Positions 25,439-25,658 of a DNA stretch of 47,360 bases are shown here, piece by piece. Position numbers and translations under genes: made by a program. Source of the stretch: Myxococcota bacterium (GTDB lineage: Bacteria; Myxococcota_A; UBA9042; DTJE01); contig JARKOL010000044.1 in the NCBI GenBank assembly GCA_029975745.1, positions 1 to 47,360 on the forward strand, given 5' to 3'. Each line of letters opens with the position of its first letter. Within the stretch, counting starts at the first letter, position 1. A model generated the notes under the pieces. It did not search any database. It saw only the letters and a program-made list of their open reading frames with translations, and was not told where the DNA came from.

Positions 25439-25467
25439 TTGACCTGATGAAGTAAGTCATGTATGCT
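25439..25467 (+). promoter_or_regulatory. Sigma70-type promoter overlapping a TGAC-N12-GTCA palindrome
   Basis: TTGACC (25439-44), 17 nt spacer, TATGCT (25462-67). Confidence 0.75.
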
Positions 25468-25474
25468 CCGGTCC

Positions 25475-25555
25475 ATGATGCGGCAGACCCCGGACCACAT
25501 CGTTGCCAGAGCTCGACGCGGGCGCCCCGCGCCTCGCTGCTTCTGCATCTGTTGA
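25475..25555 (+). CDS. Putative leaderless Cys-rich leader peptide ([26 protein letters not shown])
   Basis: ATG 7 nt after the -10 box with no SD; 3 Cys in the last 5 codons; directly upstream of sulfur amino acid genes. Confidence 0.7.
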
Positions 25556-25556
25556 C

Positions 25557-25605
25557 GGCCGGCCGCGCGGCCCGGGAATGACCTCCCGGGTTCGGCGGAC
25601 CGGCC
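25557..25605 (+). promoter_or_regulatory. Long GC-rich hairpin (candidate attenuator structure)
   Basis: GGCCGG/CCGGCC, CCGC/GCGG, GG/TT and CCCGGGA/TCCCGGG pairings with an ATGACC loop; starts 1 nt after the leader stop codon. Confidence 0.6.
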
Positions 25606-25658
25606 TCGACAATCCCGGACGACCCTTTGACGCAACATGGGACAAGGAGAACCCGAAG

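Follow-up and report, generated by a model that had tools for sequence, protein, structure and literature searches.

The question raised by the locus studied here is whether a short open reading frame (ORF) that ends in cysteine codons, and which lies ahead of a metY–methyltransferase–cbs operon in a Myxococcota bacterium, could act as a ribosome-based sensor controlling the genes behind it. The stretch of DNA that we analyzed (hereafter the window) spans 47,360 nucleotides (nt) of contig JARKOL010000044.1 in the assembly GCA_029975745.1, and is contig C267 of a metagenome-assembled genome with a size of 4.26 Mb, 69% G+C, 87% completeness, and 408 contigs. From the letters of the window, an original prediction had proposed a leaderless attenuator responsive to cysteine, composed of a promoter, a short ORF with terminal Cys codons, and a GC hairpin, and we found each of these elements where it had been placed (Table 1). 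Our answer, at a probability of roughly 0.7 as judged from sequence comparison, is that the leader is a ribosome-stalling Cys/Met sensor and a leader-peptide attenuator of the metY–methyltransferase–cbs operon. Here, the core of the prediction, a leaderless ribosome-based sensor for a sulfur amino acid operon, is supported by comparative evidence from eight of nine related leaders, whereas an alternative pairing within the leader RNA, the sensing of Cys only, and a pairing with the Shine-Dalgarno (SD) sequence are not.

The evidence that carries this reading comes from the relatives of the window, for which we used the 20 genomes of its GTDB family and a search of 107 genomes of the class. MetY proteins with at least 75% identity are encoded at 11 places in ten genomes of the class, with ten of these places lying within the family, and nine of the places have upstream sequence. 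One architecture is common to eight of these nine metY leaders, namely those of the window, of a metY paralogue on contig C190 of the same genome (G000), and of the relatives G002, G005, G008, G011, G016, and G018. Short ORFs with terminal Cys codons and covarying hairpins upstream of related metY genes were what the original prediction had suggested looking for, and short ORFs with Met/Cys codons ahead of such a hairpin were found in these eight. In seven leaders, the promoter has the form TTGAC[ACG]-17-TAnnnT with an ATG 6–7 nt after the −10 hexamer, while the eighth (G008) carries TTGCAT-15-GATAAT with its ATG 4 nt after the −10. The ORFs have 25–32 codons, and the distances from ATG to hairpin (58, 64, 64, 64, 70, 70, 79, and 82 nt) represent five different lengths that are all 1 mod 3. 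No similarity can be detected among the ORFs over their 5′ two-thirds, which are not alignable, and when the window is compared with its closest relative (G011, whose MetY is 92% identical), similarity of the DNA begins only at position 25549; an alignment of the whole leaders by MAFFT was not structurally meaningful. Directly before the hairpin, Met and Cys account for 20 of 40 codons in the eight leaders, compared with 10 of the 131 remaining ORF codons and a genome background of 2.4–3.7%. The check on loss of the Cys codons from orthologous leaders, which the original prediction had named as a sign against it, turned out in favor of the prediction, with Met/Cys codons kept in eight of the nine. 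Moreover, in seven leaders, that of the window included, 4 nt separate the end of the last sensor codon from the hairpin, as against 7 nt in the remaining one. TGT makes up 10 of the 12 sensor Cys codons versus a genome share of 13.6%, a preference that fits a sensor, because a rare, wobble-read codon is expected at such a position. The stop codon is situated 1 nt before the hairpin in the window and G011, in the 5′ arm in G016 and G018, and in the 3′ arm in G008, C190, G002, and G005. Among 80 metagenome loci (69 with at least 200 nt of upstream sequence), none has the hairpin signature; Met/Cys counts from these loci were kept out of the statistics.

The hairpin is the best conserved part of these leaders. 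In the window, it has a predicted folding energy of −40.0 kcal/mol, against a mean of −25.5 kcal/mol for dinucleotide shuffles (z of −4.47), and none of 200 shuffles folds as well. Across the eight leaders, the hairpins extend over 43–55 nt with energies of −27 to −44 kcal/mol and z values between −3.0 and −5.3. The foot consists of six base pairs, five of them invariant and one with a G-U pair in a single leader (TCGGCC in G018), and in the consensus fold, compensatory changes on both sides occur at 5 of 14 pairs, while the interiors vary in both sequence and length.

Here, the sequences also indicate that the identity of the putative sensor codons tracks the operon, with Cys before metY–cbs and a Met-rich sensor before metY–metX. 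In fact, within the five codons before the hairpin, leaders of the metY–(methyltransferase)–cbs operons (window, G011, G016, and G018) together contain eight Cys and no Met codons, whereas those of the metY–metX operons (C190, G002, G005, and G008) contain eight Met and four Cys codons, their sensors being M-M-C in C190, M-M-M in G002, M-M-C in G005, and M-C-C in G008. The cysteine sensor of the original prediction is thereby supported for the terminal Cys codons before metY–cbs, though at the level of the family it becomes a Met/Cys sensor, as the leaders of the paralogue and three relatives contain Met.

The promoter of the window leader lies where the G+C content falls to 0.50 (25400–25499). 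Two promoter-like sites occur in 24800–26200, versus 0.0 in shuffles, and the same two are the only ones in 20001–40000, where 1.0 would be expected, which makes the promoter better evidence than the ORF by itself. The geometry of the site listed in Table 1 leads us to expect the 5′ end of the RNA at, or next to, the A of ATG 25475. The other match, AAGACA-17-AATAAT (25404–25432), falls in the A+T-rich stretch directly upstream of the −35 hexamer, and might serve as an UP-like element instead of being a promoter in its own right.

Table 1. Features of the metY leader and operon in the window, in order of position.
Feature	Position	Strand	Basis or remark
−35 hexamer TTGACC	25439–25444	+	Sequence; 17-nt spacer to −10
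−10 hexamer TATGCT	25462–25467	+	Sequence; 7 nt ahead of ATG 25475
Short leader ORF, 26 codons, TGA at 25553–25555	25475–25555	+	Putatively leaderless
Sensor codons TGC TTC TGC ATC TGT (C-F-C-I-C), final five of the ORF	25538–25552	+	
GC hairpin, GGCCGG...CCGGCC base, variable interior	25557–25605	+	Folding and comparison
Hairpin-to-SD spacer	25606–25643	+	C > G together with the hairpin 3′ arm; possible Rho loading region
SD sequence AAGGAG of metY	25644–25649	+	Sequence
metY (O-acetylhomoserine sulfhydrylase)	25659–26975	+	Cys_Met_Meta_PP, 1.2e-136; TIGR01326, 690 bits (cut-off 495)
Gene with SAM-dependent methyltransferase fold	27000–27749	+	Methyltransf_11/25
cbs (cystathionine beta-synthase)	27746–29104	+	TIGR01137, 536 bits (cut-off 510)

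To place the promoter and ORF in a genomic context, we scanned the 4.26 Mb of the genome for the motif TTGACN-16..18-TANNNT, which gave 215 matches, 25 of them with an ATG 5–9 nt downstream. Leaderless genes look usual in this genome, since 18 of these 25 ATGs open frames of at least 100 codons. Four others open frames of 8–60 codons, one of which is cut by a contig end, and the three complete ones are the window leader, the leader of the metY paralogue on C190, and a His-rich ORF before hisG. The last of these is found on the minus strand of contig C290 (G000:C290, ORF start 5018, loci L120/L122), and has TTGACA-17-TACGGT, 6 nt to the ATG, and 21 codons with five His in nine; it is located about 100 nt ahead of hisG (TIGR00070 above its cut-off), with a GC hairpin lacking a U tract in between. 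A relaxed scan for promoters with short ORFs also returned a Trp-rich ORF on C80, which was taken as chance because it precedes a protein read as secreted or lipoprotein-like. A regular-expression search of genome G000 for a sensor plus hairpin gave 14 matches, among which only the two metY leaders resemble leaders by inspection. We rejected a repeat or mobile element, as the leader and its hairpin are unique in the genome.

As to how such a leader might operate, the reading that we favor would have a sigma-70-type promoter positioned so that the RNA begins at the AUG of the short ORF, which would then be translated without a leader. When Cys-tRNA is scarce, the ribosome would wait on the Cys codons, as would also be so for scarce Met-tRNA in the metY–metX paralogues, and the waiting ribosome would be parked against the folded hairpin, with the two jointly covering the leader RNA. 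With an ample supply, the ribosome would run on to the stop codon, which lies at the hairpin or within it, open the hairpin, and leave. Because the stop codon stands 1 nt before the hairpin or inside its arms, a ribosome that does not wait must open the hairpin, and because a biosynthetic operon should be ON while the ribosome waits, the folded hairpin would belong to the ON state. Left bare, the C-rich leader RNA would then allow Rho to load, which would stop transcription ahead of any translation of metY, while a parked ribosome together with the hairpin would block the entry of Rho. Neither an intrinsic terminator nor a helix that sequesters the SD sequence would take part. Among several poor options for the output step, Rho-dependent termination seems to us the best, though we propose it tentatively and at clearly less than even odds. 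Of the two outputs that the original prediction had named, Rho or translational control, the former is favored by a missing U tract, by an excess of C over G, and by a rho gene in the genome (695 bits, above the cut-off), and the latter is unsupported by our tests of the SD region. Here, the prediction's remark that no clear U tract follows the hairpin was borne out both in the window and in the other seven leaders. The C/G ratio from hairpin apex to SD sequence is 1.1–2.7 in the eight leaders and 1.3 in the window, with C exceeding G in all eight, and that of the ORF RNA is 1.0–1.6. No terminator-like sites were found in 24800–26200, and over 40 kb of the window, sites of the canonical terminator type show no enrichment (8 versus 7.4 expected; 4 versus 6.6).

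Pairings within the leader RNA were examined for an output that acts on metY translation or on an alternative fold. The two hexamers that the original prediction had paired, CCGCGC (25527–25532) in the ORF and GCGCGG (25565–25570) in the hairpin, are both present, but shuffled sequences pair just as well (z of −0.02 in the window for the upstream ORF with the 5′ arm), and the pairing is not conserved. Likewise, across the leaders, no specific complementarity was seen between the upstream ORF and either hairpin arm (mean z of −0.46 for the 5′ arm and +0.73 for the other). For the hairpin 3′ arm against the downstream RNA, z values range from −0.9 to +0.4, and no classical region-4 partner is detectable. 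Duplex energies of the sensor region with the RNA around the SD sequence (z of −0.7 to +0.6), and of the whole ORF with this same RNA (mean z of −0.02), are within chance. When partition-function folds were computed with a ribosome masking the RNA at the stop codon or at either the first or the last sensor codon, predicted accessibility of the SD sequence does not change consistently between states in six of the eight leaders, and in the window it stays at 0.57–0.61 throughout. These results bear on a translational attenuation of the Ms5788A type, where the RNA of the short ORF or a freed 3′ arm would pair with the SD region of metY and a stalled ribosome would free it. For leaderless Cys short ORFs, no mechanism other than SD pairing is known to have been demonstrated experimentally (Canestrari et al. 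2020; 10.1101/834739). Moreover, in G016 and G008 (two of the eight leaders), the SD sequence is predicted to become less accessible when the 5′ arm is masked, and several leaders have CUCC or CCUCC after the hairpin. Nonetheless, with the sensor, whole-ORF, and 3′-arm duplexes all within chance and accessibility not consistently altered in the other six, we consider this explanation unlikely. A programmed frameshift leading from the short ORF to the frame of metY, which is open from 25503 in the window, was rejected, since relatives do not keep that frame open ahead of the gene (437 residues open for 435 matched in G018, and 459 in G008).

Other explanations concern the hairpin and the ORF themselves. 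Being very stable and conserved, the hairpin could by itself, with no U tract, terminate transcription or pause it strongly. A ribosome stalled at the last sensor codon would then lie over the foot and keep the hairpin from forming, and, going by the general footprint geometry of ribosomes, the 4-nt spacing would indeed place the foot at or inside the entry channel. However, a U tract follows the hairpin in none of the eight leaders, a ribosome waiting on the first sensor codon, 10–16 nt upstream, leaves the hairpin intact, and a fast ribosome enters the hairpin in the six leaders with the stop codon inside it. Such a simple terminator would therefore shut the operon off on starvation, the wrong way round for biosynthesis, and we hold it to be improbable. 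That the ORF is no sensor, with the hairpin as a structural element of the 5′ untranslated region (for instance, in stability or processing) and the Met/Cys codons a by-product of an RNA or DNA motif, would agree with the unconserved peptide sequences and with a TGT that, at 4 nt before the foot, could be kept as RNA. Set against it are the frame held over all five lengths, an ATG at the predicted transcription start in eight of eight leaders, sensor codons that vary in sequence and order (TGC, TGT, or ATG) and not in meaning, a sensor identity that follows the product of the operon, and the recurrence of Met/Cys-rich ORFs before metY in unrelated leaders of other phyla, so that we give this explanation rather little weight. 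Least probable by far is a metabolite-binding riboswitch, for example for S-adenosylmethionine (SAM) or S-adenosylhomocysteine, that overlaps an ORF by chance. While metY is often found under SAM riboswitches, and a SAM-I aptamer occurs in 6 of 15 other loci scanned, no Rfam match overlaps the leader in 25000–26000 even at E values up to 10, and none in the window reaches its gathering score. Moreover, conservation in the leader is confined to the foot of a plain hairpin, with loops, interior, and length (43–55 nt) all differing.

Several points weigh against the leader as a ribosome-stalling sensor. In the window, the sensor amounts to only three non-consecutive Cys codons, and a best score of at least three Met/Cys in seven codons is also reached in 3–6 of 92 control sequences; with such a score not being rare, the significance of the leader lies in its conservation among relatives rather than in the window ORF by itself. 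The eight leaders are kin and belong to two or three clades, so their counts overstate independence, and the link between sensor and operon coincides with these clades. G016 has only one Met and one Cys near the hairpin, and the ninth leader, in G013 (L112, G013:C120), lacks both the hairpin and a leaderless ATG. The C/G bias of the window is modest (1.3), and is only compatible with a Rho utilization (rut) site, and the role that we give to the hairpin is a guess, since no alternative helix can be demonstrated. Lastly, no His-rich ORF precedes hisG in the seven family relatives examined, and the His-rich leader on C290 was thus rejected as a sign of a general leader habit. As a separate observation, G013 does keep the promoter, and has a C-A-C-P-G-P remnant about 30 nt ahead of metY.

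With regard to known systems, the closest likeness is to the short polycysteine ORFs of mycobacteria. Canestrari et al. (2020; 10.1101/834739) describe Ms5788A and the "Cys ribulon," where the Cys codons of a leaderless short ORF pair with the SD region, and use at least two consecutive Cys codons as their criterion. Like these, the leader here is a predicted leaderless first cistron of a cysteine-metabolism operon with Cys codons near its 3′ end, it has no intrinsic terminator, and we propose the same signal, a ribosome waiting for Cys-tRNA. In contrast, the lineage is another one, the Cys codons of the window alternate instead of being consecutive, and among the eight leaders, two in a row occur only in G008. 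Also unlike in mycobacteria, Met codons appear in the paralogous operons, a conserved hairpin follows 4 nt after the sensor, and pairing between Cys codons and the SD sequence is unsupported. The mycobacterial analogy drawn in the original prediction therefore stands for the sensing step, and not for consecutive Cys codons or SD pairing; by the tested features, the window leader is not a member of the mycobacterial family, though at the sensing step it would work like one. Seliverstov et al. (2005; PMC1262725) predicted leader peptides with Cys codons for cys operons in Mycobacterium and Propionibacterium acnes, along with one ahead of the cbs gene in Bifidobacterium longum. These resemble the window leader in having Cys codons beside the stop codon and in preceding cys or cbs genes; the search there likewise turned up no terminator hairpin, and Rho was put forward. 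However, the set reported there is entirely from Actinobacteria and without a reported conserved hairpin, which here is the element best conserved, with Met codons occurring as well.

Classical attenuators of the trpL, hisL, and leuL type share with our leaders a short ORF rich in codons for the product and a peptide not otherwise conserved, but differ in that here there is no U-tract terminator, no demonstrable antiterminator/terminator pair, and a start that is predicted to be leaderless rather than led by an SD sequence. Rare synonymous codons at the sensor also have a precedent in leuL. As in Rho-dependent attenuation of the tnaC type, a ribosome held near the end of the leader ORF would, as proposed here, deny Rho the adjacent RNA. 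In tnaC, free tryptophan brings about an arrest at the stop codon, whereas here the arrest would come from hungry sense codons. The literature that we searched, with most subscription journals and supplements lying outside it, contained no description of leader peptides with Met or Met/Cys codons before metY, nor of leader-peptide attenuation in Myxococcota. To our knowledge, ribosome-mediated cysteine sensing has been shown only in mycobacteria, and we know of no methionine-sensing leader peptide, which would make this one a first.

Turning to the genes around the leader, metY, a methyltransferase gene, and cbs follow it just as originally predicted, and the profile scores in Table 1 confirm metY and cbs, while the gene between them matches at the level of its fold and has no specific NCBIfam model above its cut-off. 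The cbs start overlaps the methyltransferase stop as ATGA. Two more genes come after cbs (29605–31916), one for a class-V aminotransferase that in our reading is cysteine-desulfurase-like and one, mnmA-like, for tRNA thiolation, on account of which the sulfur-related neighborhood extends beyond the operon. Upstream are ftsA and ftsZ (21476–24044), and between a UPF0047 gene and the promoter lie about 900 bases (24500–25400) with 0.64–0.77 G+C and long open frames on both strands, for which there was no Pfam match. Among public RNA data, four runs were covered in the form of contigs, which show no RNA starts or ends; two of these runs are probably DNA by their label, and stretches left uncovered in X18 and X19 carry no meaning. 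Contigs of runs X18 and X19, from one study and filed as metatranscriptomes, join position 25463 to 26999 with 54 other letters in between, a variant that keeps the −35 hexamer and methyltransferase–cbs, and from which the short ORF, hairpin, and metY are absent. Since this variant lacks leader and metY together, the two behave as one cassette.

Outside the family, Met/Cys-rich ORFs before metY are not confined to relatives of the window. We compared 92 metY-upstream regions, made up of 80 genome loci of many phyla and the family loci, with some family places occurring twice. The best ORF has at least four Met/Cys in seven codons in 25 of the 92 regions and at least five in 16, while in controls (the reverse complement and three shuffles), a score of four was attained in 0–1 of 92 and a score of five never. 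Loci of Acidobacteriota, Gammaproteobacteria, and "Eisenbacteria" show leaderless-type promoters, sensor runs like M-C-M-C-M-C, and a terminator of canonical form whose nested stem is similar. Nine loci (L027, L031, L036, L045, L053, L059, L067, L075, and L104) have a Met/Cys ORF followed by a U-tract or T-rich terminator with such a stem. These nine are like the window in their metY (MetY 72–83% identical), leaderless-type promoter geometry, and sensor codons for Met and Cys, and differ from it in their longer runs (4–7 Met/Cys in seven codons) and their canonical hairpin with a T run. An Rfam scan of the nine identified no family, and the literature searched held no description of them. Leader ORFs rich in Met/Cys behind leaderless-type promoters are likewise found before metY at L147, L148, L154, and L177.

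A different arrangement, in Bacteroidota and Acidimicrobiia, was seen at the six SAM-I loci mentioned above (L069, L080, L084, L091, L092, and L093), where a short ORF with a terminal run of Cys codons lies between the aptamer and metY, which makes a tandem sensor of SAM and Cys-tRNA possible. For the Anaeromyxobacter loci L048, L057, and L058, we found no leader ORF before metY, and neither of these two arrangements; there, repeated GTCCG.../...CGGAC motifs around a TTGACA promoter look like a protein operator.

Taken together, we consider it slightly less likely than not that Met/Cys leader peptides constitute a widespread and undescribed control of metY across phyla, one that would sense both end products of homocysteine with a single ribosome. 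The family of the window would then be its terminator-less form, with a leaderless ORF, sensor codons tuned to the operon, a hairpin 4 nt after the last of them, and a ribosome that together with this hairpin shields the leader from Rho. For the Myxococcota, the leader offers a compact and testable case in another phylum, in which the sensor codons change with the product of the operon and the usual outputs, a terminator or a sequestered SD sequence, are absent. Here, the role of the hairpin could reveal how attenuation proceeds in GC-rich bacteria without canonical terminators. Moreover, the wider pattern suggests that a regulator common in the synthesis of sulfur amino acids is overlooked in many genome annotations.

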